Shown: positions 1-17,943 of the stretch, in pieces
How the letters are laid out: each line of letters begins with the position of its first letter
How positions within the stretch are numbered: position 1 is the first letter of the stretch
Source: an uncultured Acidobacteriota bacterium
GTDB taxonomy: Bacteria; Acidobacteriota; Vicinamibacteria; Marinacidobacterales; SMYC01
NCBI GenBank assembly: GCA_947259165.1
Contig: CAMYKY010000062.1
Location: 1 to 30,822 of the forward strand
Direction of reading: 5' to 3'
DNA: 30,822 nt
Position numbers and translations under genes: made by a program
The notes under the pieces: model-generated
Told to the model about the DNA's origin: nothing
Seen by the model: only the letters and a program-made list of their open reading frames with translations
The model's database searches: none

Positions 1-84
1 AGAGGGGACTGTCCAGGACAGCCCATTTTCTCGTGTTACGGGGAAAACGTACCTGCTACGAAGATTGGTGGCTCCCCCTCACCC

Positions 85-129
85 GGCGGCGCTGGCGCGC
101 CGCCGACCTCTCCCCCACGGGGGAGAGGT
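85..129. other. two adjacent GC-rich hairpins (GGCGGCGC-tggc-GCGCCGCC and CCTCTCCCCC-acg-GGGGGAGAGG)
   Basis: Perfect 8-bp and 10-bp inverted repeats read directly in sequence downstream of the last gene of the minus-strand cluster. Neither strand has a U-tract, so this is not a canonical intrinsic terminator. Confidence 0.4.
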
Positions 130-218
130 TAACCGCTAACATCTTCATGGTTTCGGGTGAGGCGTGGCCTCATGAAGGACTGTCCCTTTTTGAACCTTTT
201 GGGAGAGGTCGGCGAGCG

Positions 219-728
219 CTACTCCTCCAGATACAGTTCTTTTTTTAGCTTCGCCAGCTGCTCGGGGGTGAGAGATTGACTCTCTAGAATCTGGACGAGC
301 TGCTCTCGGTCACGAGCTACGGGACGGAAGCCGCAGCCGTCGAAGAACTCGGGGTTCGCTTGTTCGAGCAGGGGGTGCGGGTAGTCGCGGCACATACCGG
401 GGCGTGAGTCGTAGCTGTCGCAGCGTTTCGTGGATGTATCGAAGTGCGTGCACTTGAAAATGAACGCTTTGTCTTCGCGACGCGCTTCGATGAGCGCGAA
501 ACCATTCACCTTGTCGTGCCACCAGAGAAAGATTTGGCGGGCGAAAGGGAAGTACCAGATTAGATTGCCGACCTGAATCCCGGGTTGCTCGCAGCACTTG
601 GCGCAGCCGACGCACTCTCCGCCGAGCTCATAGCGGACGTCGGCCTGGCTGCGGTGAAGCCACAGTCGAACGTGATAAACGCCGAGGCCGAGCCGCTTGA
701 CGCTTCTTCGGAGCCGGCCGTCGTTCAT
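219..728 (-). CDS. YkgJ/UPF0153-family putative Fe-S or zinc-chelating protein (CxxCxxCC)
   Basis: 169-aa ORF with motif CVGCAKCCEQ followed by a second Cys cluster, CTHFD..RCDSYDSRPGMCRDYP, typical of the CxxCxxCC 'putative zinc- or iron-chelating' family. Its ATG overlaps the stop of the upstream AAA gene (ATGA at 725-728), suggesting translational coupling. Confidence 0.55.
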   Translation of the reverse strand: MNDGRLRRSVKRLGLGVYHVRLWLHRSQADVRYELGGECVGCAKCCEQPGIQVGNLIWYFPFARQIFLWWHDKVNGFALIEARREDKAFIFKCTHFDTSTKRCDSYDSRPGMCRDYPHPLLEQANPEFFDGCGFRPVARDREQLVQILESQSLTPEQLAKLKKELYLEE

Positions 729-2473
729 TGAAGAAGTGCGGCGATCTCCTGGATGCGGTGCTCGAGTGCCGGGGTTTTCTCGGGAGTGCCGAAGCGCTCG
801 CGCAGTTTTTCAGGGATGAACATGGGGTCCGTGCTCTCGCGGATCGCGACGAGCTGCTGAAGCTCTTTTTCGAGGCCGTAGTCAGGCGTTCGAAAGTGCT
901 CGAGGGTCTCGCGAATATGGTTGGCTGTGGGTGCATCCGCGCCAGCGATTGCGGCACGCCGCACGCATTGGACGAGGAGGCTCTCGATATCCGCGCCTGA
1001 GAGCTCCGGCGGTAGCGGAGGAAGATCGTTGTCGTCGATCTTGACGCCATTTTTGCGCGCCATCGCGAGGAACATGCTCTTGCGCGCGGCTTCGGTCTCA
1101 GGAGGGAAGAGCGGGATGTGGACTTCGCACCGTCCCTGGCGCTTCAAGTCGACGGGGAGCAGATCGGGACGGCACGTCAAGAGCATCCACACGATCTTGC
1201 CTCGGTACCGAGTGTCGCTCATGAGAGACGAGATCATCGCGAACATGCGGCTCGAGGTTCCGCTGTCGCCACCCGCGGCGCGGCTTCCCAACGCCGCATC
1301 CGCTTCGTCGATGACGACGACCACCGGGCCGAGGGCTTTGATCACCGATAAGACTTTCTGAAGATTTCCCTCGGAGCTCCCCACCCATTTGCTGCGCAGG
1401 TTCTTGAACACGAGAGTCGGGATCCCAAGACTTCCGGCGAGACACGTTGCCGTGAACGTCTTACCCGTTCCGATCACCCCGCAGAGTAAATAGCCCATCG
1501 GCAAGGCTTCGAGTCGGCCGTCTTTGAAGAGGCGAACATCTTGCTCGAGCCGCTGTCTCACCGCTTCCGGGACGACGACCGTCTCGAGGTCGTAGCTCGG
1601 AGCCACGAAGTCGACCAGGCCGAAGCATTGCTTTTCGATCAACTCCTTTTTGGCCTCACGAAGCCGTTCGAGGTCGACGCGTTTGCCTTTTCCCCCGGAG
1701 CTTCCGACGGCCTGCGAGAGTCCCACGAGCGTGAGTCCGTTGGCCTCACGAGCAACGTCACGAGCCGCTTTGACGTTATCGAACAACGTCTTTGCAAAAC
1801 GCTCGCGTGTCGGCTCATCCGGGAGATCGACCTCGACCTTGGAAATGAACGGATTCTCGACGAGACGGCGATTGACGTCGCCGAGTGCTTCGGCAACGAG
1901 ACAAAGCGTGACATCCGCGCCGCGGATGCCGGGATCGTTGGCCCAATTGAGGACTTTGATGAGATGGGTACCGAGCTCTCCGCTCAGCATCGAGCTATCT
2001 ACGGCAGGGGTAATGGTCTCGATGTAGCGGATGATGATGGCGAGGCCTTTGCGGCTCCCGTTTTCGGGCGCATCGACGAGTTTGTGAAGAATGTAGCGGT
2101 CCAAGAGCTCGAAGACGAGCTTGGGATCTTGGAGACGCGCGTTGGCGTAGCTCGTTCCGCTGATCAGATCGATGGCCTTGAGTGTCTTGTGGAAGTCCTC
2201 CTGCATAGCCGCGCGGCGGTCGCTGTTGCCGGGTGCGAGAAATCGGATGCCGCTTCCACGATCATAGGAAAGGACGATGTCGCGTTGGCCGAAGAGCTGG
2301 GTCGCGAGGTAGTGCTCGAGAGAAACGAACTCCTCGTTCGCCGCCAAGGCTGGGCAAGACACGAGGTCGTGGACGTTGCCGTGGAGCAGAAACACGCTCG
2401 CCGAACCGCCGACGTAGCGGGTCGCGAGCTCGCGCGCCCAATCGGGCGCGCCATCGCCCAGCGGGTTATTCAC
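725..2473 (-). CDS. AAA+ ATPase, classical AAA clade, with ~300-aa N-terminal domain of unknown function
   Basis: 582-aa ORF. Walker A is GVIGTGKTF, Walker B is VVVIDEADA, and the second region of homology is TCRPDLLPVDLKRQGRCEVHI (RPD..R.GR arginine-finger pattern of classical AAA such as Vps4, katanin and FtsH). Its start overlaps the pspA stop by 8 bp. Confidence 0.8.
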   Translation of the reverse strand: MNNPLGDGAPDWARELATRYVGGSASVFLLHGNVHDLVSCPALAANEEFVSLEHYLATQLFGQRDIVLSYDRGSGIRFLAPGNSDRRAAMQEDFHKTLKAIDLISGTSYANARLQDPKLVFELLDRYILHKLVDAPENGSRKGLAIIIRYIETITPAVDSSMLSGELGTHLIKVLNWANDPGIRGADVTLCLVAEALGDVNRRLVENPFISKVEVDLPDEPTRERFAKTLFDNVKAARDVAREANGLTLVGLSQAVGSSGGKGKRVDLERLREAKKELIEKQCFGLVDFVAPSYDLETVVVPEAVRQRLEQDVRLFKDGRLEALPMGYLLCGVIGTGKTFTATCLAGSLGIPTLVFKNLRSKWVGSSEGNLQKVLSVIKALGPVVVVIDEADAALGSRAAGGDSGTSSRMFAMISSLMSDTRYRGKIVWMLLTCRPDLLPVDLKRQGRCEVHIPLFPPETEAARKSMFLAMARKNGVKIDDNDLPPLPPELSGADIESLLVQCVRRAAIAGADAPTANHIRETLEHFRTPDYGLEKELQQLVAIRESTDPMFIPEKLRERFGTPEKTPALEHRIQEIAALLQ

Positions 2474-3221
2474 TGGATTCGGGCGTCGCCTGTTTCTGGG
2501 GACCGACAGTTTTCTCGCTCGGCTCCGAGGACGGCTCCGCGAGCCCCTGTTCGATCTTGAACTGCGCGAGGAGCTCCGAGGCTTCCGCTTGTTCAGCGGC
2601 TTGTTTCGCCTTGAGGTTGTCCAATCCCTGGTCGCTGAGATCGCCCGCGACCTTGGAGCGGGCTTTCGCTTTGTTGATCTGGTCGTCGACGCGGCTCATG
2701 ATCTCGCCGATGTCCGTCGACACGTCGAACGAGGTGTTGAGAGCACCAGCGGTCTCGGAGACTTCGGCGAGCGCGTTTTCCATTTGAAGCGCCGCCTTCT
2801 TTTTTTGCAGATCTTTCTTGGAGTTTCCGATCTCCTTCAGCGCGGCTTTCATCTTCAAGAGGTTGTTCTCGTAGTTTTCTTGGTGCTGCGCGAGCTGCTC
2901 TTTGTTGCTCTCGAGCTCGGTCTTGACCTGCGCCAGCTCGAGCGCGAGCTGCCCGGCCATCTCTTCCTGGTTTGCCTTCAGATGATTCTTGATCTGGCCC
3001 GTGAGGCTAGTGATACGGGAAGTCTCACTTTGGACCTGACCTTGCACTTTCAGCACCATCGCCTGATAGGTGATGAGTCCCTGCCGAGCCTCCTTCAGCC
3101 GCTCGGTAGCCTGCTGCAGCTTGGTGTCGGCGAGCGCGATGACGTGCTTGTCTTCCATCTCGGTGACGGACTTGTTAATCAAGGCATACCAGACGGCTTT
3201 GATGCGTGCGAAAAGCCCCAT
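2466..3221 (-). CDS. pspA: PspA/IM30 (phage-shock protein A / Vipp1 family, ESCRT-III superfamily)
   Basis: The protein from internal Met MGLFARIKAVWYALINKSVTEMEDKHV (252 aa) matches the PspA/IM30 N-terminus (MGIFSRF..INA..EK.EDP) and is a long coiled-coil. There is a strong RBS: AGGGAG lies 6 nt upstream of the ATG at 3221. The 144 aa further upstream in the same ORF are Ser/Arg/Thr-rich low-complexity sequence and lie in the palindrome-containing intergenic region. Confidence 0.85.
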   Translation of the reverse strand: MGLFARIKAVWYALINKSVTEMEDKHVIALADTKLQQATERLKEARQGLITYQAMVLKVQGQVQSETSRITSLTGQIKNHLKANQEEMAGQLALELAQVKTELESNKEQLAQHQENYENNLLKMKAALKEIGNSKKDLQKKKAALQMENALAEVSETAGALNTSFDVSTDIGEIMSRVDDQINKAKARSKVAGDLSDQGLDNLKAKQAAEQAEASELLAQFKIEQGLAEPSSEPSEKTVGPQKQATPESSE

Positions 3222-3330
3222 CACTGACTCCCTTCGATGAATACCGCTCTGGAGAATGGTAAAGAACTCGTTGCCAAGGCGCAACGTTGCAGGTGACGAA
3301 CCGAAACCAGAACTCGCGATCCTCTGCTTC

Positions 3331-3439
3331 TTAACGCAAAGTCGCCAAGGCGCAAAGACGCAAAGAAAAGATTGGCCGAGCGGTTCGGACGAGCCATCCA
3401 CCCCCTTTGCGCCTTCGCGCCTTTGCGACTCTGCGTTAA
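3331..3439. repeat. palindromic CGCAAAG-heptad element (35-bp arms, 39-bp spacer) in the pspA upstream region
   Basis: Left arm is TTAACGCAAAGTCGCCAAGGCGCAAAGACGCAAAG (3331-3365). Right arm is CTTTGCGCCTTCGCGCCTTTGCGACTCTGCGTTAA (3405-3439), the reverse complement with about 85% identity. A further GCCAAGGCGCAACG half-site lies at 3271-3290. A related copy is at 22519-22660 and a fragment at 13739-13754. Confidence 0.6.
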
Positions 3440-3498
3440 AGAACTTACGGTGTCGACTCGTCCCCAGTTGCGCGTGGGCGGCGCTGAGTGAGAGAACA

Positions 3499-6400
3499 TC
3501 ATGTTGCGGGCTCGTCGGTCCCAGGCTCTTCCTCGTCGGTGATGTTCGACAGCGCCGAGACGTTGATCTTCTCGAGCGCTTCCACGAGCTCGGGGATGTC
3601 GTCGACGTACTCGAGTTTGTTGATGAGCGCTTTGATCTTCGGATCGTCGACACCGCGGAATCCCCGAAAGCGATGGGCCATGAACCGCATTAACGGGATC
3701 AGCGTTCCTTCAATAAGGTAGGACTCGCGTGAAATGAGCTCGTAATCGGCCGGCGGCGCCTGCGGCTCTGGCGGCTCGGCGGAGGGGGCGAGCGCGCTTG
3801 CACGCCCATTGCCAAAGGCTTCGAGGAGCTCATGGAGCTTTTCGATATAAGGTCCGAGGTCGAGCTGGACATCAACCTGAGGTGCTGGGGCCGGCTCGGC
3901 GGCCGCGCTGGCAGCAAACGCGAGGTCCGGATCCACAGACGGCGGTACCGGGCGTGATGCTGCTTTCGCTGTCGCCCGGTCGATACTCTCTCCGATACTT
4001 TCAAGGTGCTCGGAAACCATGCTGAGCTGTCCGGTCAGACGTGTCGCGGGGTCGTCGTCGCCACCACCCATGCGCTGGATACGGACGAAGCCTTTCTTGA
4101 TATCCTCCCATCGGGCGCGCTGCGTATCCGTCAAGCGGGCTCGCATCTCGCCGAGCTTGAGGAGATTCTCTTCTGCACCGGTGGTGAGAGTTTGAGACTC
4201 ACCGAGGTAGTGGTCGTCGATGAGGTTTTCGAGCTCTTCGTCGTTCATCGCCGGGACAATCTTTTCAGTGAGCTTGTTCATGTTCCGGTAGCTGCCCTGC
4301 AGCCGGAACGGGGGTTCGGTGCGGTACGCGTCCTCCTGAGATGCGGAGCGGATGTATTGCTGGTTGACGGCTAGAAGTGTCTCCTGCACTTTCAGGAGTT
4401 TCTTCAACACGGATAGAATCTCGCCGATTTCGACCGCCGAGTAGCCGTGTTGGAGCTGGTCGCTCTGGACCGGCTCGCCTTGGGCCATGCGAACCAGCAT
4501 GACGATGTCGTTTTGCTCCCGCGTGGTCAGCGGCGCGAGCACTCCGTTCGACGTTAGAGAATTCTCGATATAGGACAAGGCGAAGAGGTCGCTCTTGCCT
4601 TCGAGAATATCGCCCAGGTTGTAGGTGTCGGCGCGATTGGCCAGCATGTCTGGAATCTGGAACTTTTCCCCGGACTCGGTGTACGGGTTTCCCGCCATAC
4701 AAACGACGAACTTCTTGCCCCGCAGATCGTAGGTGCGGGTGCGTCCTTTCCATACACCTTCGACCTTGCGTTGGGCATCGCACAACGAGATGAACTTCTG
4801 GAGGAACTCGGGATGGGTGTGTTGGATATCGTCGATGTAGAGGAGAACGTTGTTACCCATCTCGAACGCGAGATTGAGCTTTTCGATCTCTTGCCGTGCG
4901 GTGGCGTTACCGGCTTCGGCCGGATCGAGCGACGTCACCGAGTGGCCGAGGGCGGGCCCGTTGATCTTCATGAAGACGAGCCCGAGGCGGTTGGCCAGAT
5001 ACTCCATCAGCGTCGTTTTGCCGTAGCCCGGCGGTGAGATGAGAAGGAGCATGCCCATCAAGTCGGTACGCTTCGCTTCGCCGAGTGCGCCCATTTGCTT
5101 GGCGAGGTTGTCGCCGATCAACGGGAGGTACACGTCGTTGATGAGTCGATTGCGCACGAACGAGGACATCACCTTGGGCTTGTACTCGTCGAGACGCAGG
5201 ACGTCGCGCTCCCGATCCAACACGGCGTGCCGCGCTTTTTGGAAGTCGCGAAAGCCGGGGACGCGTCGGTACCGGAAATGGCCGAGACGTGACAGGAACT
5301 CATCGAGGTGGAGCTGCATGCGGCCCTGCTGGATCCGCGGGTGCTGTCCCAACAAACCCTCGATCGCGACTTTGGCCTGAGCACTCGAAGTTTCGCGGCT
5401 GACCTTGCCTTCGAACAGGATCGCGACAACGGTTTCTTGCGCGGCGCGGACCGGGCGGTCGTTCTTCTCGGCAAAAGTCGTTACCCACGCGAGCGCAACG
5501 TCATAGGCGCGCACCGGCGATTCTCGAAGTCCGCGAAGATCCTGTTCGAAGTCCCGCTCGGCGCCAGATTCTCGCAAGTGTTTATCGAAGGCTTGCTTGA
5601 GCTCGTCGGCTTCCGCACTGAGAACGAATTTCTGGGGCTCACGCGCGATCTCCTGGAGGAGATAAGCGCCCGCGACGCGCGCCGCCCGCTCAGGCACGTC
5701 GATGCCGAGCTCGGACAGATGTTCGACGATCGCCGCGTTGAGCTCGGTGCTGAGCTCGCTCAGCACGTCACTTTGTTCGAAGTGGATACGCAGGCGATGC
5801 AGGCTCTTCGCTTGGCTTTCCCACTCCGAGCGCTTCTTGCGGTCTGGAAACAACGCCCAAAACACCGTGGCGAGCGCTCGCGCTGTCGGTGTGAACCGCA
5901 GCAGGCCGGCACTTTCGTACATGCCGAGCATCTTCTGAAGAATCAGAGCCGCGTCGGCGTCGTGGAGACCGCGCTCGTATCCTTCGTCGTAGCGCTCGGC
6001 CGCGTAGTCCCGCACGGTTGCAAGAAGCTGCTTTTCGACCCGAGTTGCTTCGTGAAGCTTCGCGAGTGAGAGTCCTGCGTCGCCGATTTCAGCGTCTTCG
6101 AGAATGCAATACGCGAGGTATTCCGACCGGTAAACGTCATCGGTCTCGGAGACCAGCTCCTGGTCCCAGAACTCGCGCGTCTTGGAGAAGGCTTCGTCAG
6201 CGATCGCTTCGTAAAAGCCCGTGCCACTCAAGTGAAACGCCATCCCGTCGTCGCGGGGCACCATCGTTAGCTCGAGCGGTTGGGTATTGACGCTGAAGCG
6301 GTGGCGTCCAAACTTGATGACGTTGGCGCCGTCCTCGTAGATTTCCTGGCGATCGCGCAGGCCACGTGCTGCGTCTTCTTTGGCGGCTTTGAGCCGGCCA

Positions 6401-8895
6401 TCAATCTCGTCGGCATGGACCGAGTCGCCGAGCTCTCTCAGGTTGGCCGAGGTGCTTCGAAGCTTGGCGACCATGGGGTCGGCCGCGAAGTATGCGTTCA
6501 GATCGTCGGAGCTTTTGAACGTTTCGGCACGCCGGGTGACGCTTGCGAGAATGCGCTCCGCTGCCTGCATCAACGTCTGCGCTCGTCGTTGGCGCTGGTC
6601 CACGAGGGATTGCTTCTTGGAGCTGAAGGCTTCGTAAATCTCCTCGCGCTTGGTGGTGAGCTCGGTGACGAACTCGTCGAACTCGGAAAAGCGGGTTTCG
6701 AGGTCTTCGAGCTGCAGCATGAGCTTCGACAGCTGCTCGTCGCATTTCTCGGGAGAGCCCGACAGAGCGAGCGCGCTGGTAACGCTTTGGCTGAGGAGCT
6801 GGAACTGGACCCCGAACTCGGCGATGCCTTCTTTGCCGAGTAGCTCCTTCCGCCGGTTGGCGATGAGAGCCCGTACTCGGTTGAGGCTTCCCATGATCTC
6901 CGAGATGTTGCCGAGGATCTGTGTCCTCACCGTCGCATCTTCGATATCGAGCGAGCCGACGACATCGGTCAATAGATCGAGGCTGTCGCCGAGCTCCTGA
7001 AGGGACTCCTGATGTTCGTTGGCTTCGGTGACTTTTGCTAGGCCCGGAACCATTTCTTCGAGCTCGGCCGCTCGCAGGTGGTAGGGAACCAGTGCCTCGG
7101 CCTTCAACAGGAAGTCGACGGCGCGCTGGCTCACAGTATCGAACCGCTCGACGATCTCTGCCTCGAGAGCATCGATATTGTCGAGGTCGACGTAGCGTAC
7201 CTCGCGCAAGGTAATGAGATGGCCGCGGGCCGAGCGCAAGCTGGCGAGACAGGCGACGAACTGATCGATCGACGTCCACGAGTCGGGATAGATGTTGCGG
7301 AAAATATCTTGAACTCTCTCGGCAGATTCGGCAAGCGCTTTTGTCGCGTCGGCGCGCAGCGCTTCGACTTTCTCGAATTCGTCAATGATGCTCTCGGCGG
7401 TGGCGTGAACTTCGTTCAGGACTACACGTAGGTTGCCGATCTCGGCGTTGTCGAGCCAGTAGTAGCTGTCGATCACCCGCTCGGTCGCAGAGACGATGTC
7501 TTCGTACTTTTGTCGGGTGGGCTGCTGCTCGTCGACCATGCGCCGGATGGAGAGGCAATCCGAGACGCCGCGGACGAGCTCGGCGTTGCCGACTTTCTCG
7601 AGAAACGACCCGGTCGGCGGAAGGGCTTTCACGTGGTCGTCACTCATGAACGGCGTGCGCCACAGCTGCATGTTGTGGACGCGCTTGGGCTCGTCGGTGT
7701 CGGCGCGAAAGATGATGACGGTGCCGTCGGGAAAGAGGCTGAACCCGTGGCAGTTGAGAGGATTGTCGACTTCCTTCCGGATCATGTTGTACGGCAGCAA
7801 AATGGTGCGCCCAGAGGCTCGCTCATGAAACGCGTAGAGCACGTCCTCACCGTTGGGTGAGCGGATACGGCGCAAAAACTCCATCCCCTCGATTTCGCGG
7901 TCGAACGATTTGGTGTGACCGCTTTGAAGGTAATAACCGCCGGGGAAAATGATGCCGTGGTCTTCAGGAAGCTGGACGCACGCATGACCGATGGCGTCGA
8001 TCCGATCGACCTGATGGGTCCGAGTGTTGAACACGAGGTAGCGGTACTCGGTCTCACGGTAGGGAAGGACCTTGAGCAGAATGAGGGTTCCCACTTTGGC
8101 GTAGTGGACCTCGGCGTCGTCGAGCGCCTGGTCGGCATCGATCACCGGCTCTTGATAGATGCCTTGGCCGTCCTCCGTGTTGTTCTCGACCTTGATGGTG
8201 AAATCGCCCCCGAGCGTCTCCACGAAGACTTCGTCGAGAATGTTGACGTGGGGGAAACGGCCTGCGATGTGGTCTTCGCGCGCTGTCGTCGTCCATTCGA
8301 AGTCGTGTGTCGGAGGGAATACGTGGTCGCGCTCGCCGCGGTTGTCGATATAGCTGACGGCGCCATCCGGGGTCATGGCCCAGCGAAAGACGCGAACATC
8401 GGTGATCTTTTCGCCGATCTGGAACACCGCGAGGAGCTTGTCGCCGACGGTCCTCAGCTGGAGCAGTCGGGTTTGAGCGTAATATTGATAGAGCTCCTTG
8501 AACTCCTCGACGAACTTGGGATCGGAGAGGAAGTAGGCGGGCGAGTCTTTGGCGACAGCGTGCAACGTGATGCCGTCGTCGGTTTTGTCGAACGTGTGCA
8601 GGCTGAAAACGTCGTCGACGTGCGTCTCGCGCTTGAGGCCGATGAAAACGTTGTAGCCGAAGAGGAGGCGGTTGCCGACCTCCTTGATATCCCGGGGAAC
8701 GCAGTTGTTTTCGGTGCGGATCCGTTCGTTGCCCAGGACTGCGAGCTCGGTGCCGCCGAAGAGCTCGAGGCGTTTCTTGTTGAGGCTATCCGCCCGCTCG
8801 GCCAGCGTTTTACCGTGGCCGAGAAGGCGGTCTCGAATAATCTCGTAAGTGCCGCGCTCGATCTCGGGTTTTTGAGTGTCAGGACTGGTGCTCAT
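3499..8895 (-). CDS. giant (1798 aa) multidomain protein with internal AAA_5 (MoxR/McrB/dynein-like) ATPase module
   Basis: Uninterrupted 5.4-kb ORF. Around aa 1285-1440 (about nt 4560-5050) lie Walker A LISPPGYGKTT, Walker B NVLLYIDDIQH and sensor-1 FVVCMAGNPY. Long predicted helical and coiled-coil stretches precede the ATPase, and an Ala/Pro-rich linker plus a ~80-aa C-terminal domain follow it. RBS AGGTG lies 7 nt upstream of the ATG, and there is only a 10-nt gap after the flotillin stop. Confidence 0.85.
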   Translation of the reverse strand: MSTSPDTQKPEIERGTYEIIRDRLLGHGKTLAERADSLNKKRLELFGGTELAVLGNERIRTENNCVPRDIKEVGNRLLFGYNVFIGLKRETHVDDVFSLHTFDKTDDGITLHAVAKDSPAYFLSDPKFVEEFKELYQYYAQTRLLQLRTVGDKLLAVFQIGEKITDVRVFRWAMTPDGAVSYIDNRGERDHVFPPTHDFEWTTTAREDHIAGRFPHVNILDEVFVETLGGDFTIKVENNTEDGQGIYQEPVIDADQALDDAEVHYAKVGTLILLKVLPYRETEYRYLVFNTRTHQVDRIDAIGHACVQLPEDHGIIFPGGYYLQSGHTKSFDREIEGMEFLRRIRSPNGEDVLYAFHERASGRTILLPYNMIRKEVDNPLNCHGFSLFPDGTVIIFRADTDEPKRVHNMQLWRTPFMSDDHVKALPPTGSFLEKVGNAELVRGVSDCLSIRRMVDEQQPTRQKYEDIVSATERVIDSYYWLDNAEIGNLRVVLNEVHATAESIIDEFEKVEALRADATKALAESAERVQDIFRNIYPDSWTSIDQFVACLASLRSARGHLITLREVRYVDLDNIDALEAEIVERFDTVSQRAVDFLLKAEALVPYHLRAAELEEMVPGLAKVTEANEHQESLQELGDSLDLLTDVVGSLDIEDATVRTQILGNISEIMGSLNRVRALIANRRKELLGKEGIAEFGVQFQLLSQSVTSALALSGSPEKCDEQLSKLMLQLEDLETRFSEFDEFVTELTTKREEIYEAFSSKKQSLVDQRQRRAQTLMQAAERILASVTRRAETFKSSDDLNAYFAADPMVAKLRSTSANLRELGDSVHADEIDGRLKAAKEDAARGLRDRQEIYEDGANVIKFGRHRFSVNTQPLELTMVPRDDGMAFHLSGTGFYEAIADEAFSKTREFWDQELVSETDDVYRSEYLAYCILEDAEIGDAGLSLAKLHEATRVEKQLLATVRDYAAERYDEGYERGLHDADAALILQKMLGMYESAGLLRFTPTARALATVFWALFPDRKKRSEWESQAKSLHRLRIHFEQSDVLSELSTELNAAIVEHLSELGIDVPERAARVAGAYLLQEIAREPQKFVLSAEADELKQAFDKHLRESGAERDFEQDLRGLRESPVRAYDVALAWVTTFAEKNDRPVRAAQETVVAILFEGKVSRETSSAQAKVAIEGLLGQHPRIQQGRMQLHLDEFLSRLGHFRYRRVPGFRDFQKARHAVLDRERDVLRLDEYKPKVMSSFVRNRLINDVYLPLIGDNLAKQMGALGEAKRTDLMGMLLLISPPGYGKTTLMEYLANRLGLVFMKINGPALGHSVTSLDPAEAGNATARQEIEKLNLAFEMGNNVLLYIDDIQHTHPEFLQKFISLCDAQRKVEGVWKGRTRTYDLRGKKFVVCMAGNPYTESGEKFQIPDMLANRADTYNLGDILEGKSDLFALSYIENSLTSNGVLAPLTTREQNDIVMLVRMAQGEPVQSDQLQHGYSAVEIGEILSVLKKLLKVQETLLAVNQQYIRSASQEDAYRTEPPFRLQGSYRNMNKLTEKIVPAMNDEELENLIDDHYLGESQTLTTGAEENLLKLGEMRARLTDTQRARWEDIKKGFVRIQRMGGGDDDPATRLTGQLSMVSEHLESIGESIDRATAKAASRPVPPSVDPDLAFAASAAAEPAPAPQVDVQLDLGPYIEKLHELLEAFGNGRASALAPSAEPPEPQAPPADYELISRESYLIEGTLIPLMRFMAHRFRGFRGVDDPKIKALINKLEYVDDIPELVEALEKINVSALSNITDEEEPGTDEPAT

Positions 8896-8905
8896 ACGTT
8901 AGCAC

Positions 8906-10969
8906 CTAGAGCCTGACGTCGTCGATACCGAGCGCCTTCGCTTGACGCTGGAGTTTCTTGAGCTTCTCCAGGTCGTCTCCTCCCGTTCCAGTGTCCGTGG
9001 CGAGCTTCGCCAGAAGCGCTCCGATGGTGATGTCTTTCAAGGTTCCACCGTCGACGCCGGACTCTTTCAGCGTCTGGCGTATCTCCTTAATGATGTTCTT
9101 GTCGCCGTTCATGTAGTCCTTGGCGAGACCGGAGATCACGTCGCTCTTGTCGATGAGCTCGTCGATACCCTTGCCCATGCCGATGGAGTTCACCATGCGG
9201 TCGAGAAACGCACCGTCGCCGCCGACGATATCGATGTCGGCGGATTCGAGCGCTTTGGAGAGAATCTGGGCCTTGTGCTCCGCGACGTTCTCACGTGCCT
9301 GGATCGCTTCGAGTCCGAGTATTTTCTCGTTCTCGAGACGCAGGCGGTACTCTTCGTGCTCGCGGCTGTCCTTGTCGAGTTCTCGCATCGCCTGGGCTTT
9401 CGCGGCAATGCCTTTTGCTTCGGCGGCGAACTTGTCGCCGATCGCGTGGGCCGTGGCCGTACCTTTCTCGTGAACGACTGCGGCTTCCGCGATCCCGACC
9501 TTCTCCACTACCGCGGCGTCGGCTTCGCGAACGCGAACCTCGGCGAGTCCGTGCTTCTCGGTGGCGACAGCATCCGCTTCCTTCACACGGGCGGCAGCGA
9601 GACCTTCCGCCGCGGATTCAGCCTGGACACCTTCGGCGATCCGAATCTTCGACTTGGCTTCACGGTCGGCGGCTTCGAGCTCGGCGTCCGCCAGGGTGAC
9701 ACGCTCGACGGCCTTGTGCTTCGCGGCCTGCTCCTGAGCTTCGGCGGCCTTGATGTCCTTAACGAGCGCTTCTTCGGCCTCGGCTTCGGCGCCGATGATC
9801 ATTGCGGACTTGGCGCGCTTCGCTTCCTCGACGACCTGAACCTCTTTGATCCGCTCCTGCTCCTCGACGACGGTGCGCTCGACGGCGACCCGCTCGCGGA
9901 TGACGTCTTGAATTGCTTTGCGCTCGACCTCGAGAGCCTTTTCCTTGTCGATCCGCATGAGCTCGACCTCACGCTCTCGATTCACGGCTTCGAGCTGGCG
10001 GTCTTTGTCGACACGCTCGGTCTCGACTCCGATGACTCGCTCGCGGTTTTTCTGCGCGACCTGGACTTGTCGGTTCTTGTTCTCTTCCGCGACCTGGACT
10101 TCTTCGTCGGTCTTGATGCGGGCACCCTCGGATTTCAGCCGTTCCTCCGCCTGAACTTGCATCAGCGTTGCGGTTTCTCGTGCACGGACGGATTCGATCT
10201 CACGTGTTTGCTTGGACTGAGCGTCGGCTTCTTCACGATCCAGCTCGAGAATGACCTTCGCCCGTTCCACGTCTTGCTTCTTGATTGCTTTTTGTTCGTT
10301 GTTCTCGAACTCGTTGGTTTGAATGTGCTCCACCGCCGTGAGCTCGGTGATCCGACGGATACCCTGGGCATCGAGGATGTTCTTGGGGTCGAGATGGGCG
10401 ATGGGCGTCTGCTCGAGGTAGTCGATCGCCGCGTCTTCTAGGACGTAGCCGTTGAGGTCGCGTCCGATGATCTCGATGATAGCGTCGCGAAATTCGTCGC
10501 GTTTGGTATAGAGATCGACGAACTCGAGCTGTTTGCCGACAGTTTTCAAAGCTTCGGAGAATTTGGCGCTGAAAAGCTCGTCGAGGGTTTCGGGAGACGA
10601 AGCGCGGGCGCAGCCGATGGCTTGAGCGACCTTGATCACGTCTTCGACGCGTTTGTTGACGCGCACGAAGAACGTGACCTTGATGTCGGCCCGAATATTG
10701 TCGCCGCAGATCAGACCATCCTTGCTGCGACGGTCGATCTCGATGGTTTTGACCGAGATATCCATGACCTCGGCTTTGTGGATGACTGGAAGCACGAACG
10801 CGCCGGTGAAGGTCACTTCGGGCTCGCGTTTCATTTTGTTGACGACGAGCGCTTTGCCCTGTTCCACCTTGCGGTAGAACTTGGACACCATCATCAAGAA
10901 TCCCCAACCCATGATGATGAGGGCAAAGGCGCCTACGACGCCGAGAACGATCAGGTCCATCATCTGCAT
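8906..10969 (-). CDS. flotillin (SPFH/band-7 domain, FloT/YuaG-like)
   Basis: 687 aa with an N-terminal TM helix, an SPFH region and the long Glu/Ala-rich flotillin repeat region (AEAEAEEAL.., EAAVVHEKG..). The true start may be the 3rd Met (10963), which has GGGG 9 nt upstream. Confidence 0.9.
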   Translation of the reverse strand: MQMMDLIVLGVVGAFALIIMGWGFLMMVSKFYRKVEQGKALVVNKMKREPEVTFTGAFVLPVIHKAEVMDISVKTIEIDRRSKDGLICGDNIRADIKVTFFVRVNKRVEDVIKVAQAIGCARASSPETLDELFSAKFSEALKTVGKQLEFVDLYTKRDEFRDAIIEIIGRDLNGYVLEDAAIDYLEQTPIAHLDPKNILDAQGIRRITELTAVEHIQTNEFENNEQKAIKKQDVERAKVILELDREEADAQSKQTREIESVRARETATLMQVQAEERLKSEGARIKTDEEVQVAEENKNRQVQVAQKNRERVIGVETERVDKDRQLEAVNREREVELMRIDKEKALEVERKAIQDVIRERVAVERTVVEEQERIKEVQVVEEAKRAKSAMIIGAEAEAEEALVKDIKAAEAQEQAAKHKAVERVTLADAELEAADREAKSKIRIAEGVQAESAAEGLAAARVKEADAVATEKHGLAEVRVREADAAVVEKVGIAEAAVVHEKGTATAHAIGDKFAAEAKGIAAKAQAMRELDKDSREHEEYRLRLENEKILGLEAIQARENVAEHKAQILSKALESADIDIVGGDGAFLDRMVNSIGMGKGIDELIDKSDVISGLAKDYMNGDKNIIKEIRQTLKESGVDGGTLKDITIGALLAKLATDTGTGGDDLEKLKKLQRQAKALGIDDVRL

Positions 10970-11003
10970 CCCCCTATCCGAAATTGTCCAAAACTGAAAA
11001 GGC

Positions 11004-11846
11004 TCACGACTCCTCCGTGATCTTCACGGCTTCCGTGAGCGCGGCGTCCACCGGGCCGATGAAGAAGATCCCTTCGGACGGCTCGTAGCGGTAGACGAGT
11101 GCCTGAGTGCCACGTTTTAGATCGTTGTTCTGAGGGCAGCGCACCTCGGCGACAAAGCCCGCGCCACCGTCTTCGATCTCGGCTCGGCCGAATTGTTCGT
11201 CGACGCGCGCCGATAGAACCGTGCACAGCTTCCCCACGAGTGATGCTCGGCGAGGTGCTTGTTGAGTTACGAAGAGTCTTCGGAAAGGCCTCGAGGTCAG
11301 GGCCGCCATCACTAGAGCGCCGAAGCCGGAGGCGACGGCGATGGTGAGACCGGCGAGAAACGTCGCCGCCATGGGGCCCAAGAATCTCGTGGCTAGATAG
11401 CTGATAATCCAAGCCCAGAAGATCGCGAACGTTCCCACGATGGTGATCGGAACGCCGCGTACACCCATGGCGTTCAATATGCCGGACAGGAGGCCACCAC
11501 TGTGTCCGTCGGCCGCCTCCGCCGCACCCTCCGCCGCCGCACCCTCAGCGACTCCCTCAGCGACTCCCTCAGCGACTCCCTCAGCGACTCCCTCAGCGAC
11601 TCCCTCAGCGACTCCCTCAGCGACTCCCTCGAGGGCACCATCCATCACTCCGTCCGCAACGCCGTCGAGGGACTCGATTGCCCCGTCGAATGCAGCGTCC
11701 ATGGAGTCCAGCCCGAGGATGGTGTCGAGGAAGTCGATGTCCAGCGCCCCGAAAATCACCACGAGCCAGTAAAGGAGCGCCATCGCCAGGGCGCACGTGA
11801 ACACGATTGTTGGAAACGACACGAGCGTGGTGAGGAATTCCTGCAC
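11004..11846 (-). CDS. NfeD/YuaF-like membrane protein (C-terminal OB-fold NfeD domain) with internal (GVAE)n repeat
   Basis: Proposed GTG start at 11846 with GGAG 8 nt upstream. The N-terminal portion of the track ORF (11847-12107) looks non-coding. The protein has TM helices flanking a GVAE x7 repeat. The C-terminal soluble segment LVGKLCTVLSARVDEQFGRAEIEDGGAGFVAEVRC..GTQALVYRYE fits the NfeD beta-barrel pattern. Its position immediately upstream of flotillin matches the conserved nfeD-flotillin pair. Confidence 0.65.
   Translation of the reverse strand: MQEFLTTLVSFPTIVFTCALAMALLYWLVVIFGALDIDFLDTILGLDSMDAAFDGAIESLDGVADGVMDGALEGVAEGVAEGVAEGVAEGVAEGVAEGVAEGAAAEGAAEAADGHSGGLLSGILNAMGVRGVPITIVGTFAIFWAWIISYLATRFLGPMAATFLAGLTIAVASGFGALVMAALTSRPFRRLFVTQQAPRRASLVGKLCTVLSARVDEQFGRAEIEDGGAGFVAEVRCPQNNDLKRGTQALVYRYEPSEGIFFIGPVDAALTEAVKITEES
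11545..11628. repeat. perfect 7 x 12-bp tandem repeat (TCAGCGACTCCC) inside the NfeD-like CDS
   Basis: Seven identical units with no synonymous variation, flanked by degenerate copies (11521-11544). On the coding strand they encode (GVAE)7. The repeat is in-frame (12 = 4 codons). Confidence 0.9.
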
Positions 11847-12034
11847 GCTTTCAGCTCCTTTCGACTGACGAGTCGCGGATCGGTCGGTTCGATGACGTGC
11901 CGACGACGCGACAATTAGGCTAAGAGAAGCCTCTCCCGTTCGACAGAAAGCTATCGCTACGCGAGAACCGTGGTTTCGGTTGTAGTTGTGCCGGTTGTGG
12001 TGGTCCGGGCCCTTTGGCTCGAACTCTGCCACCA

Positions 12035-12064
12035 ATAATAAAGCAAACCGGGGCGAAAAATCAA
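12035..12064 (-). promoter_or_regulatory. candidate sigma70-type promoter for the minus-strand six-gene cluster (TTGATT-N18-TATTAT)
   Basis: Read on the minus strand, TTGATT (12064-12059) is followed after 18 nt by TATTAT (12040-12035). This gives a ~180-nt 5' UTR to the GTG at 11846. It is a sequence match only. Confidence 0.25.
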
Positions 12065-12257
12065 GCGCGCATCCAGCGTTTTGCGTCTTCCGGTCACCCG
12101 TGTCCAAGACGTTGTTGCGGTTGTGAAAAGCACAGAGTTTCTTTATGTGTTGTCAGCGGGTGAGCTTCGGACGTGTATAAATTCCTATTCAACAGTGCAT
12201 TGGGGAAGCGTGGTGGCTGAATGCGCGAACGCAGAGTTGCGAATCGGTATTTTCGTC

Positions 12258-14285: not shown

Positions 14286-15917
14286 TCAAACCTCGGCCGT
14301 CTTGGCGCCGGCTCTCATACGGTCCTGCGTGTAAACGGAAATCGCTCCGAAGCCCCATAAGGCGATCGCAGCCGGTACGACGAACTCCAAAATCGGAATC
14401 GACTTCGCCACCATGACCAGAAACAGCCCAAGGGCGAAGCGAATCAGGCCTGCGCTTGCGCTCGTGGGTGTCCCCAGTATCTCGCGACCAATGTAGGCCG
14501 CGACGAAGACTTGTGCAACGTAGAGGCCGACGCCGAGGACGAACAGCGTCGTCAGTCCGAGCGGGGCGCCGACGACCGTGATGGTGACGAAACCGCCGAG
14601 CACGAACAGAATCACCGTGGAGAGGACACCGTAGACGAAGCTTCTGCCGTATTCGGGTACGTGTTTCGTGATGATCACTTCGCTCGCCTCCGGCATCAAG
14701 AGGATGATGACGCTGCCGAAGATGAACGCCGCGGTCCAGAAATAGAAAAACGCCGTCACCCAGGAGATGACGGGACGCTCATGATCTTCCTCCTCCACTC
14801 GCTCGAACACGATCGGCGAGCCTAGCTCGGCTTGGGGGTCGACCTCAGCTTCTTTGGGTCCGTAGTACTTCGTGGTGCCGCCGATCGCGCCTTCGGGGCC
14901 GATCGACAGGCTCTCCGCGGCAACGAGCACCGAGCCGCTGACCCGGGCGCGGATCTCGGTCGTCTTGGCGGCGACGATGATGTCGCTCGGGACCGGGGCG
15001 TCGAAGAATACCTCGCGTCCCGCGGCGATCACGCTGCCGCCGAGGTTCGAGCCGCTGGAGAATCGAAGCGTTCTTCCCGCCGAGGTTACGTTCCTGGCGA
15101 CGTCGCCTTCGATCTCCAGCCGCATTGAGGCAGTGCGGACGCTACCGCCGACGCGGCCCGCTATCTCGATGCTTTCAGCAAAGCCGAGGACGTCGCCGCG
15201 AACCTCACCGGTGATTTGAACGATACTTGCGGCGACAATTAGGTCGCCGTTGATGGTCCCCTCGATGCGGATTTCTTTTCCCTTGATGATGAGGTCCGTC
15301 TCGATCACCTCTCCCGCTCGAAGGGTATACACATCGGCGTCGAGCTCGATGACCGCGGCCGTTGCTCGAGCGGCGGGAAGAACAACTCCGCCCAGGACCA
15401 AGAGCATCAGCGAGAACGACGCCGCGGACGAGCGCCAACGACGCCAGGTCCGATGAGCGATAAAACCGGCAAGGGCGAGCGAGGCGAGTAGCACCACTCC
15501 CTGGATGAATTTCATCAACATATCTGTCCAGCCGCTCCATAGAAGACTTTGAATCAAGACGCTGGTGGCAACGCTCGCGCCGTCTAGGCCTACGGTCTCC
15601 ATGCCGTCGACCACGGGTGCGACATAGCGTGTCCATAGCGACGACACGCCGAGCGTGCCGAAGATGAGCATGGCCACGAGGACCCACGAGATGTCAGCGT
15701 GCCGTGGTCGGATGTGATCGGGTAGCGCCTCGGCGTGCTCGTGCACCGCGGCCCGTAGGAGCTCGGTCTCTGCTTTCAAGGCTTCGTACCCCGCGCGACA
15801 CCTGGCGCATTCGATCAGGTGGGTACGAGTCGCATCCTCGCGATCCCTCGACAACTCTCCCTCGGCGAGCCTCATGATTGTCAGCTCGTCGACATGCTTC
15901 ACATCAGATGCGCTCAT
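14286..15917 (-). CDS. zinc-finger (HxxxCxxC) anti-sigma factor with extracytoplasmic beta-helical bactofilin/DUF4097-like repeats and C-terminal polytopic membrane domain
   Basis: 543 aa. The N-terminus carries H..C..C (HLIECARCR), as in ZAS-type anti-sigma factors. Internal TM helices are followed by repeated G.V.G..I.I.G.V beta-helix-like units (EIRIEGTINGDLIV.., EIEGDVARNVTS..). Four or five C-terminal TM helices follow. The start overlaps the sigma gene stop (ATGA). Confidence 0.7.
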   Translation of the reverse strand: MSASDVKHVDELTIMRLAEGELSRDREDATRTHLIECARCRAGYEALKAETELLRAAVHEHAEALPDHIRPRHADISWVLVAMLIFGTLGVSSLWTRYVAPVVDGMETVGLDGASVATSVLIQSLLWSGWTDMLMKFIQGVVLLASLALAGFIAHRTWRRWRSSAASFSLMLLVLGGVVLPAARATAAVIELDADVYTLRAGEVIETDLIIKGKEIRIEGTINGDLIVAASIVQITGEVRGDVLGFAESIEIAGRVGGSVRTASMRLEIEGDVARNVTSAGRTLRFSSGSNLGGSVIAAGREVFFDAPVPSDIIVAAKTTEIRARVSGSVLVAAESLSIGPEGAIGGTTKYYGPKEAEVDPQAELGSPIVFERVEEEDHERPVISWVTAFFYFWTAAFIFGSVIILLMPEASEVIITKHVPEYGRSFVYGVLSTVILFVLGGFVTITVVGAPLGLTTLFVLGVGLYVAQVFVAAYIGREILGTPTSASAGLIRFALGLFLVMVAKSIPILEFVVPAAIALWGFGAISVYTQDRMRAGAKTAEV

Positions 15918-16468
15918 GGTCCCAACCTCGTCCTCAAGGCACGCCGTGCTCTCAGCAACAACACGCCGGCGAAATTGCTCGAGATACCGAGCACTTCACC
16001 GATCTCCGCGTAGCTCATCTCCGCGAAGTAGCGGAGGATGACCACCAAGCGAGTACGGTCGTCGAGAGTTGCGATGGCGCGGCGAATACTCCGCTTGCTC
16101 TCGTTGATCAGAACCGCCTCTTGGGGCGTCGGCGCTTCCGCTTCGAGCTTCGCGATCTCGTCTTCTGAGTCGTCCAGCTCGGGGCGTCGGCGTCTTTTTC
16201 TGAGCTCGTCCCAGCAATGGTTCGCAGCGACCCGGTAGAGCCAAGGCGCGAACGGGCGGGAGTCATCGTATTGAGACAGCCGCAGCCGGGCTCGGAGAAA
16301 AACCTCTCCGGTCGCATCCTCGGCGTCCTGCCGCGTCGGCAGGGCTCTCCGACAAAGCCTGAAAATGGAAGGTGCCATCATTCGATAGATCTCCGCCCAA
16401 GCTTCGGAATCCCCGTCGCCGGCCCCTCGGGCCAAGCTCGCCAGGTCTTCTTCGCTCGACATTCCCAC
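15914..16468 (-). CDS. ECF (group IV) RNA polymerase sigma factor
   Basis: 184 aa. Region 2 is PWLYRVAANHCWDELRKRR. Region 4 HTH is LRYFAEMSYAEIGEVLGISSNFAGVLLLRARRAL. Confidence 0.85.
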   Translation of the reverse strand: MGMSSEEDLASLARGAGDGDSEAWAEIYRMMAPSIFRLCRRALPTRQDAEDATGEVFLRARLRLSQYDDSRPFAPWLYRVAANHCWDELRKRRRRPELDDSEDEIAKLEAEAPTPQEAVLINESKRSIRRAIATLDDRTRLVVILRYFAEMSYAEIGEVLGISSNFAGVLLLRARRALRTRLGP

Positions 16469-16808: not shown

Positions 16809-17213
16809 ATGAATCCAAAGAAGCTCTTACCGATGTTTGTGACCGATAAGCTTGCCGAGACGAAAGCGTTTTATACAGAGAAGGCGGGCTTCACGATCAC
16901 GCATGATCTGGACGGCTATCTATCGGTTCACTATGGGGACGAAGACGGCCCCGAGCTCGCGTTCGCGGCATCAGAGACCGAAGTGATGGGGAAGTTGCCG
17001 CTTTTCCGCGGCGAGGGGATCATCGTGAGCATTCCGACACCGAACGCGGATCGCAAGGCGACGGAGATGGCGAGTCACGGTGTGACGCTCATTGGGGAGC
17101 CAGAGACCCGGCCGTGGGGTTGGCGGAGCTTCATGACCGCCGATCCGAACGGTGTGATCCTGGACTTCTTTCACGTACCGGCTGAGAATGCCGGTGCTGA
17201 TGCGACGGGCTGA
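16809..17213 (+). CDS. VOC/glyoxalase-bleomycin-resistance family protein
   Basis: 134 aa with AGGAG 8 nt upstream of the ATG and a typical paired beta-alpha-beta-beta-beta VOC length and composition. Family assignment is by resemblance only. Confidence 0.6.
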   Translation: MNPKKLLPMFVTDKLAETKAFYTEKAGFTITHDLDGYLSVHYGDEDGPELAFAASETEVMGKLPLFRGEGIIVSIPTPNADRKATEMASHGVTLIGEPETRPWGWRSFMTADPNGVILDFFHVPAENAGADATG

Positions 17214-17886
17214 TCGTCTTTTTCAAATCGTCCAGCTGCTGCGCCGCCGGCGGCTCACGACGGCGGCGCAGATTGCCGAGCGCCTCGAAGTTTCGGAGCG
17301 TACCGTCTACCGCGATATCCGCGACCTCGCTTTGTCCGGCGTTCCCGTGCAGGGGGAGGCGGGAGTCGGCTATCGACTTGGCAAGGACTTCGATCTGCCG
17401 CCAATGATGTTCAGCGTCGACGAGATTCAGGCACTCGTGCTCGGCGCGCGCATGGTCGAGAGCTGGGGGGATGAAGAGCTCAGAAGCGCAGCGCGCGCGG
17501 TGTTGACAAAGGTCGAGGCGGTCTTGCCGCCGTCGAAGCGGCATCGGGTGCAGGACACCGCACTCTTTTCGTTGTCGTTTCGAATCTCGCCTGAGGTCCG
17601 GGCGAGTGTCGGCACGTTGCGAAAGGCGATCGACGATCGCGTGAGAGTCCAACTGGATTACGCCGACGCGACCGGCCGACCGAGTGGTCGTACGGTGTGC
17701 CCCTTGGGTCTTTACTTCTGGGGTGCTGTGTGGACGCTAGGGGCATGGTGTGAGCTCCGTCAAGACTTCCGCAACTTTCGCTTGGATCGTATCGCTGAAG
17801 CCGTGTCCCTGGACGAGACTTTCGCCTACGAGTCGCCCCGAACCCTCGAAGATTTCATCCAATCAATGACTCGTGACGACCACTAA
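17200..17886 (+). CDS. YafY-family transcriptional regulator (N-terminal HTH + WYL domain)
   Basis: MRRADRLFQIVQLLRRRRLTTAAQIAERLEVSERTVYRDIRDL is the hallmark HTH of YafY/WYL regulators. A central WYL-type region follows. It overlaps the VOC gene by 14 bp. Confidence 0.75.
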   Translation: MRRADRLFQIVQLLRRRRLTTAAQIAERLEVSERTVYRDIRDLALSGVPVQGEAGVGYRLGKDFDLPPMMFSVDEIQALVLGARMVESWGDEELRSAARAVLTKVEAVLPPSKRHRVQDTALFSLSFRISPEVRASVGTLRKAIDDRVRVQLDYADATGRPSGRTVCPLGLYFWGAVWTLGAWCELRQDFRNFRLDRIAEAVSLDETFAYESPRTLEDFIQSMTRDDH

Positions 17887-17943
17887 CAGAGCAAAATCTT
17901 TTTGTGTGGGTAAATCCCAACGCACTCGTGTGGTGCGGAGCCG

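Follow-up and report, generated by a model that had tools for sequence, protein, structure and literature searches.

Gene organization of the locus

The window analyzed here is the whole 30,822-nucleotide (nt) stretch of contig CAMYKY010000062.1, from an uncultured Acidobacteriota bacterium. On the minus strand, which carries all genes of interest, a gene for a divergent homolog of PspA is followed by a gene for a 582-amino acid (aa) ATPase with two AAA domains, called here D1 and D2 (Table 1). The two genes overlap by 8 nt, GTGAATAA, and the pspA stop codon TAA (2468-2466) lies inside this overlap. The ATPase starts with GTG at 2473-2471. No start codon precedes it in the 582-aa open reading frame (ORF), and it is the sole start that retains the family-invariant P10 and W12. 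An earlier reading made from the DNA letters alone (the sequence-only reading) had described the pspA stop as overlapping the start of the ATPase gene, and the 8-nt overlap bears this out. The same overlap is also present in the close relatives L001-L004 and L008.

No sigma-70 promoter was found in a scan of positions 1-3700 of the window. A sigma-54-like sequence, TGGCA-N-TTCT, was considered upstream of pspA and set aside, as it was judged by eye to be too weak.

Table 1. Predicted features of the PspA-ATPase locus, with window coordinates and the basis of each assignment.
Feature	Position	Strand	Basis or remark
Divergent PspA/IM30 homolog, 251 aa	2466-3221	-	PF04012, Vipp1 match
Tandem AAA ATPase, 582 aa, soluble	725-2473	-	PF00004, motifs and modelled D1 fold
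ATPase D1, aa 1-285	1619-2473	-	AAA+ fold (modelled) without Walker A or B
ATPase D2, aa 286-582	725-1618	-	AAA cassette predicted to be active, and C-terminal extension
CxxCxxCC/YkgJ-type Cys-rich protein, 169 aa	219-728	-	PF03692
Spacer between giant gene and pspA, 277 nt	3222-3498		holds palindromic hairpin
Long near-perfect palindromic hairpin	3290-3450	-	RNA fold
Giant DUF3686 + DUF7902 + AAA+ protein, 1798 aa	3499-8895	-	Pfam
Flotillin/YqiK-like membrane/coiled-coil protein, 687 aa	8906-10969	-	
YqiJ/NfeD-like multi-transmembrane protein	11004-12107	-	maximal ORF; true start probably near 11,850

Conservation of the PspA-ATPase gene pair

In a scan of one genome per species, 193 relatives were recovered; 80 loci were retained and compared with the window proteins by tblastn. 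In 74 of these 80 the ATPase gene is directly preceded, on its own strand, by a gene for a PspA homolog, and four of the six exceptions (L012, L039, L043 and L050) have less than 750 nt of upstream DNA. Identity over the loci ranges from 41 to 85% for the ATPase and from 33 to 86% for PspA. The loci come from at least three phyla and span Acidobacteriota (Marinacidobacterales, 69-85% ATPase identity), Planctomycetota, Binatia and "Deltaproteobacteria" (41-47%). From group to group, the genes around the pair are entirely different.

The pairing is also seen with a different PspA. The gene for P0184 (L081/L082), a much more distant ATPase of the family, is preceded at a distance of 10 nt by one for a canonical PspA_IM30 protein (E=2.7e-18), and in Clostridium the two genes occur in the reverse order (PMC11237479). 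The link between PspA and the ATPase is therefore found in separate lineages. The sequence-only reading had made the pairing depend, beforehand, on conserved synteny in related genomes, and the 74 loci supply it: the PspA/classical-AAA gene pair is real, widely syntenic and translationally coupled.

The distant loci, about 22-25 in number, have a longer gene set. In this order, it consists of PspA, the ATPase, a small protein of 107-186 aa, an NMT1-type binding protein fused to OmpA, a BPD permease, an ABC ATPase and a transmembrane (TM)/coiled-coil protein of roughly 300 aa. A Snf7 nature of this last protein was not confirmed. The small protein is possibly one more core partner of the ATPase.

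The gene for this small protein lies directly downstream of the ATPase gene in Planctomycetota, Binatia and delta loci, about 25 in all (e.g., L009 11760-12083). It is also present in L023 (8447-8875), a locus without PspA. The protein matched no Pfam family and is not related to YkgJ, which takes its position in the window.

The PspA homolog

The PspA homolog matches PF04012 (PspA_IM30) over residues 2-226, which align with positions 1-219 of the 220 in the profile (E=1.4e-8). Its Pfam score of 35.1 bits exceeds the gathering cut-off of 33.9 by a small margin. It also aligns with cyanobacterial Vipp1 sll0617 (8qfv, 7o3w), residues 1-248 against 1-237, at E=1.1e-5. The protein begins with MGLFARIKAV, as part of the amphipathic helix MGLFARIKAVW. 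By these matches the window protein is assigned to a divergent branch of PspA/IM30, in the ESCRT-III superfamily. Membrane binding and polymer formation are predicted from family membership, and only the N-terminal MGLFARIKAVW motif is visible in the sequence itself.

Beyond its last helix, the protein has a C-terminal tail that is conserved in 69 syntenic homologs as FKIEQGL.EP...K-T/E-V/L-GP. The canonical PspA of L081 escaped a local hidden Markov model of the dyad-type PspA, also when the filters were switched off. The canonical PspA of the P0184 locus has no detectable similarity to the window PspA beyond the N-terminal motif. Since the two PspA subfamilies are so divergent, the tail motif is specific to one clade.

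The active AAA domain of the ATPase

PF00004 (AAA) matches the ATPase at residues 329-454 with E=1.4e-21. Within this region, D2 has the Walker A motif GVIGTGKT (nt 1457-1480, residues G332-T339) and the Walker B motif VVVIDEAD with D389/E390 (VVIDEAD, nt 1298-1318). Its pore loop, SKWVG, is aromatic (KWVG, nt 1379-1390; W363/G365 invariant). The second region of homology lies at nt 1118-1177, and the stretch RPDLLPVDLKRQGRCEVHI, on which the sequence-only reading had based its placement of the domain in the classical AAA clade, was located at residues 435-453. Two arginines in this region, R445/R448 (KRQGR), are invariant, and the placement is confirmed. Across 41 homologs, Walker A, DE389-390 and R445/R448 do not vary. 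A helical extension of roughly 50 aa at the C-terminal end of D2 is conserved as well.

The sensor-1 Asn is replaced. Cys434 (nt 1172-1174) aligns with the Asn of "ATNRPD" in VAT, and across the family the position is Cys, Ser or Ala. The adjoining T433 is invariant and the other catalytic motifs are intact. Judged by these motifs, D2 is a classical-clade AAA domain that has the predicted parts of a substrate-threading motor.

To which AAA family the ATPase is closest was read from profile and structure comparisons. Among NCBIfam models, it scores 58.4 bits with CDC48, 49.9 with PAN, 48.9 with IteA, 43.9 with FtsH and 30.3 with CdvC. The CDC48 score lies below the cut-off of that family, TIGR01243, which is 802.65 bits, and Pfam gave no match in the ATPase to the CDC48 N-domain (double-psi barrel). 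The 57 best sequence matches in the PDB are VAT, Cdc48, p97, AFG2, NVL and Rix7, followed by mycobacterial Cdc48 and FtsH. In this search D2 matches VAT at E about 1e-30, and Vps4 is absent among the top 60 matches. Neither MIT nor PF09336 (Vps4_C) was matched in the ATPase by Pfam at E<=0.01. Structural comparison ranks the ATPase as FtsH-like.

These scores suggest that the affinity of D2 is to the Cdc48/VAT/p97, proteasomal and FtsH ATPases rather than to Vps4/CdvC. The sequence-only reading had called the ATPase Vps4-like. This description does not hold, given the CdvC score of 30.3 against 58.4 bits for CDC48, the tandem architecture and the lack of Vps4 among the 60 best PDB matches.

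The inactive N-terminal AAA domain

D1 has SVFLLHGNVHD in place of a P-loop. At the Walker B position it has AIIIRYIE, in which AIIIRY replaces hhhhDE. VTLCLVAE stands at the sensor-1 strand and ENPFISKVEVDLPD at the position expected for the second region of homology. A stand-alone structure model of D1 matched AAA+ modules only. Comparison of D1 with D2 by hhalign was not significant (E=0.44), though the alignment is in register, and the assignment of D1 therefore rests on the predicted structure together with the motif positions. On the model, D1 is an inactive AAA domain, and the ATPase joins two AAA domains in tandem, of which D1 is dead and D2 live.

The sequence-only reading had put forward the N-terminal domain of about 300 aa as a possible PspA-recognition module, analogous to the MIT domain. 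An MIT-like fold was ruled out: the stand-alone model gives a degenerate AAA fold that matches AAA+ modules only, and Pfam found no MIT match.

At E<=1e-3 a D1 profile recovered 2143 cluster representatives; the stricter limit of E<=1e-10 left 1211. The D1 fold is widespread, and the link to PspA marks particular subfamilies of it.

Some members of this wider family have other layouts. Matches of about 820-856 aa were considered as fusions of PspA with the ATPase and rejected, because they consist of two inactive D1 copies and D2. P0125, P0137, P0140 and P0217 (818-856 aa) have this triple-AAA layout, with two successive inactive D1-type domains and then an active AAA domain. In P0210 (721 aa) the same inactive D1 and a linker replace the TM region of FtsH, giving a soluble FtsH-like protease. 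This protein scores 432 bits with FtsH_fam, contains Peptidase_M41 and is 27% identical to the window ATPase over D1 and D2. P0232 (L085 4001-6158), a distant member, is split by an intein (PF14890). Its setting is phage-like, with many small unannotated genes and no PspA.

Flanking genes

Upstream of pspA lie the genes for a YqiJ-like protein, a flotillin-like protein and a giant protein. In the giant protein Pfam finds DUF3686 (E=1e-212), DUF7902 and an AAA domain at residues 1283-1364. The Pfam label of DUF3686, "ATPase involved in DNA repair", is at odds with the membrane context here. The giant gene is kept upstream of PspA in L001-L005 and L008, and in L002-L004 and L008 its spacer to pspA is only about 50-70 nt. 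The flotillin/DUF3686 module and the dyad are probably co-transcribed in this lineage.

The flotillin-like ORF has an N-terminal TM segment, an SPFH-like region and a long coiled coil. It gave no match in Pfam, NCBIfam or PDB sequence searches. Its homologs, which are 62-94% identical, go under the names "flotillin family protein" or "YqiK", and PF01145 (Band_7) is present in some. Since the window protein itself has no profile match, its identity rests on these names and on Band_7. The multi-TM ORF is conserved from about residue 71-112 onward in L001-L005 and L008, and a gene for 204-231 aa is in the equivalent position before flotillin in L089 and L090. The gene order in Table S3 of Ravi et al. 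and a reading of its sequence, rather than a profile match, suggest that this ORF is YqiJ-like.

The YqiJ-like/flotillin/giant trio also occurs alone, without PspA or the tandem AAA, in Thermoanaerobaculia and deltaproteobacterial genomes (L089 and L090). It spans 3499-12107 in the window, 9377-17008 in L089 and 9223-17909 in L090, and the giant protein has 1700-1900 aa. The trio is conserved by itself in other phyla and is joined to the PspA/AAA dyad only in the lineage of the window.

Downstream of the ATPase gene, the gene for the YkgJ protein (PF03692, E=2.1e-6) starts in a 4-nt overlap, ATGA, with the ATPase stop. The coupling of this gene to the ATPase, as described in the sequence-only reading, is therefore correct for the window. 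The gene is no core part of the system, however, and follows the ATPase only in L001-L004, L006 and L008. As it is restricted to close relatives in Acidobacteria, YkgJ is an accessory, lineage-specific gene. The ABC/OmpA genes of the distant loci are absent from the window. The position of the dyad, between the YqiJ-like/flotillin/DUF3686 module and YkgJ, points to a larger membrane-maintenance operon.

The hairpin in the spacer has an RNA folding energy of -122 kcal/mol (z=-5). Related copies are found at the same site in L001, between pspA and the ATPase gene in L005 and about 7 kb away in L008. None was found at the giant/pspA site in L002-L004. The hairpin is probably a lineage-specific REP/MITE-like repeat that lies outside the system.

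Two further gene groups of the window have no evident link to the dyad. At 14286-16468 on the minus strand, an ECF sigma factor is followed by a 543-aa bactofilin-domain protein. At 17188-18987 on the plus strand, a regulator with helix-turn-helix and WYL domains (PafC-like) is followed by a protein with a weak transglutaminase core.

Comparison with known systems

Type-II AAA proteins (Cdc48/VAT/p97, AFG2, NVL/Rix7, Pex1/6 and NSF) share the D1-D2 tandem with the window ATPase and include the best sequence matches of D2. A catalytically weak or inactive ring is present in several type-II AAA families. Unlike these proteins, the window ATPase has no double-psi-barrel N domain, its D1 lacks Walker A and B, and it is much shorter (582 aa).

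Vps4/CdvC and the window ATPase are both classical-clade AAA motors whose pore loop is aromatic and whose genes are coupled to that of an ESCRT-III superfamily polymer, and they share the predicted logic of ATP-driven subunit extraction. Vps4/CdvC differs in architecture. The window ATPase is a tandem and not a single cassette, and has no match to MIT, the Vps4 beta-domain or Vps4_C; its conserved C-terminal extension is a different one. Its sequence and structure scores favor Cdc48/FtsH/PAN, and its partner is of the PspA type, not the Snf7 type.

PspF is a sigma-54 enhancer-binding protein, an NtrC-type AAA+ protein with a helix-turn-helix domain. In E. coli, as in the window, PspA is tied to an AAA+ ATPase of the same locus; there PspA inhibits PspF, as restated in a review (PMC7619361). 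The window ATPase differs from PspF in that it has no DNA-binding domain, belongs to the classical clade and has a pore loop of the threading type. The same review states that a Vps4-like ATPase appears to be absent in bacteria (PMC7619361).

An ATPase composed of an inactive AAA and an AAA domain beside PspA has already been described by comparative genomics (Ravi et al. 2024, mSystems; PMC11237479). These authors propose an ATP-dependent membrane remodelling comparable to that by Snf7/Vps4 (PMC11237479). Their Table S3 contains two arrangements, one in Clostridium (AEY64320.1/AEY64321.1), in which the ATPase precedes PspA, and one in the operon of OGG56892.1 (PMC11237479). In their longer operons, PspA and the ATPase are accompanied by PBPB+OmpA, a TM permease, an ABC ATPase and TM+Snf7, and Clostridium sp. 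BNL1100 is among the carriers of the dyad that they name (PMC11237479). The window protein is like theirs in that a single polypeptide holds an inactive N-terminal AAA domain and a second AAA domain, and in that PspA adjoins it. The distant relatives of the window carry the same components as the OGG56892.1 operon with the ATPase differently placed, and the window ATPase is therefore part of the family already described (PMC11237479). Its orthology to AEY64320.1 rests on the architecture and shared neighbors. In contrast to the Clostridium dyad, PspA comes first in the window and the codons overlap. In contrast to the long operon, the window dyad is flanked by the flotillin/DUF3686 module and YkgJ instead of ABC/OmpA.

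Table S3 of Ravi et al. also contains an operon (ANH61663.1) with YqiJ/YuaF, flotillin and a "beta-propeller + coiled coil + AAA" protein. The same order is found upstream of the window PspA, where the giant DUF3686 protein matches the "beta-propeller + coiled coil + AAA" protein. Unlike that operon, the window has no CesT/Tir chaperone, and its trio is directly followed by the PspA/tandem-AAA dyad. No description of this combination was found, and no experimental study of the PspA/tandem-AAA pair was found in the literature. The position of the dyad directly downstream of the YqiJ-like/flotillin/giant DUF3686 module is new here, as a modest new variation. Functional links between SPFH proteins and PspA are documented (PMC10936438, PMC8581546).

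Proposed mechanism and alternatives

From the gene identities, the domain architecture, the state of the motifs and the synteny, we infer that a dedicated soluble tandem ATPase of the Cdc48/NSF style remodels or disassembles PspA polymers. We give this reading a probability of about 0.55. The ATPase would form a hexamer, in which D1, having lost its nucleotide motifs, is probably an assembly or partner-docking ring. The hexamer would engage PspA protomers, plausibly via their conserved unstructured C-terminal tail. Threading through the D2 pore, driven by ATP, would extract PspA subunits. PspA assemblies on the inner membrane would be disassembled or remodelled in this direction, and PspA would be recycled. 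In function this would resemble the action of Vps4 on ESCRT-III, although the motor would be of Cdc48/FtsH-like descent. In this form the proposal of the sequence-only reading, a dedicated ATPase for a bacterial ESCRT-III, is plausible.

Several observations weigh against the disassembly of PspA as the role of the ATPase. With the sensor-1 Asn replaced, hydrolysis may be slow or regulated. In L023 and L026 the ATPase is present and PspA is truly absent. Among six distant D1-family members that were sampled, five have no PspA neighbor, so the motor is not intrinsically specific for PspA. Proteins in which PspA is fused to the ATPase were not found in the representative search. Finally, E. coli PspA inhibits the AAA+ protein PspF (PMC7619361), and the direction of action could be reversed in the dyad.

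A reversed direction would make PspA a regulator or membrane adaptor that restrains or recruits the ATPase. The substrates would then be other membrane or envelope proteins, or components of ABC/OmpA-PBP or flotillin complexes. We consider this explanation less probable than the first, but the main alternative to it. It gains from P0210, where the same D1 is fused to a genuine FtsH AAA and M41 protease, from the FtsH-like structural rank of the window ATPase and from the many D1-family members without a PspA neighbor. The neighboring genes fit it too: there are ABC-transporter/OmpA-domain genes in the distant loci, and in the window a gene for flotillin, which is a scaffold with a link to protein quality control. 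The tight 1:1 arrangement across phyla, which is often coupled, and the clade-specific tail of PspA fit a dedicated partner or substrate at least as well, however, and the loci examined have no protease gene that accompanies the dyad.

That the ATPase acts like IetA or another defense AAA, in an anti-phage or other conflict system, is very improbable. The PADLOC/NCBIfam matches to IetA/IteA are weak (E=7e-14, 49-50 bits), and the IteA score of 48.9 bits, against a cut-off of 510, covers the generic AAA core only. One distant family member lies in the phage-like, intein-containing context described above, but next to the window ATPase there is no IetS protease or other defense gene. The ATPase gene has membrane-maintenance genes as neighbors and, in contrast to a defense island, its arrangement is preserved from phylum to phylum. 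An assignment to a defense system from the weak IetA and coiled-coil (LmuB/JetC) matches alone was rejected.

A true Vps4/CdvC orthologue, that is, a meiotic-clade AAA with an MIT-like domain acquired from archaea, has hardly any probability left. Its attraction is that the ATPase gene adjoins an ESCRT-III superfamily gene, that JGI names some homologs "SpoVK/Ycf46/Vps4 family", and that the KWVG pore loop is of the type seen in D2 of VAT. Vps4 has this type of loop as well. Against such an orthologue stand the tandem architecture with its degenerate N-terminal AAA, the missing MIT/Vps4_C matches in Pfam, and the scores and PDB matches given above (CdvC 30 bits against 58 for CDC48; no Vps4 among the 60 best). 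Moreover, the archaeal-derived bacterial Vps4-like ATPases of Ravi et al. are a separate family, in which a gene for a TPR+6TM protein stands in place of snf7 (PMC11237479).

Chance adjacency of two unrelated genes, which L023 and L026 with their ATPase and no PspA might suggest, is negligible, since 74 of 80 loci in different phyla retain the pair amid flanking genes that are entirely different, the overlapping stop and start are conserved and the link recurs with a different PspA subfamily.

Significance

The idea of membrane remodelling by an ATPase linked to PspA is not new (Ravi et al. 2024; PMC11237479). To it the window adds a well-resolved, translationally coupled example, the evidence on the fold of D1, the conserved PspA tail and the new combination with flotillin/DUF3686. 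A wider reading is tentative: the locus would encode a bacterial, ATP-driven ESCRT-III remodelling machine, in which a Cdc48/FtsH-like tandem AAA with a degenerate D1 ring disassembles PspA and so does the work of Vps4 without being one. Here it would form a membrane-repair supercomplex with the flotillin scaffold and the giant DUF3686 AAA+ protein of the same operon.

A published scenario has Vps4 arising from a two-domain Cdc48-like motor by loss of one ATPase domain (PMC10936438). In a stronger version, an ESCRT-III-like polymer together with a two-domain Cdc48-like motor would be ancestral and near the state before Vps4; the evidence here bears neither way on it.

The dyad, as two soluble proteins, is a concrete and testable candidate for the disassembly of PspA/Vipp1 polymers. 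If the ATPase does disassemble PspA, bacteria would have an energy-driven membrane-repair cycle analogous to ESCRT-III/Vps4, from a different AAA lineage.

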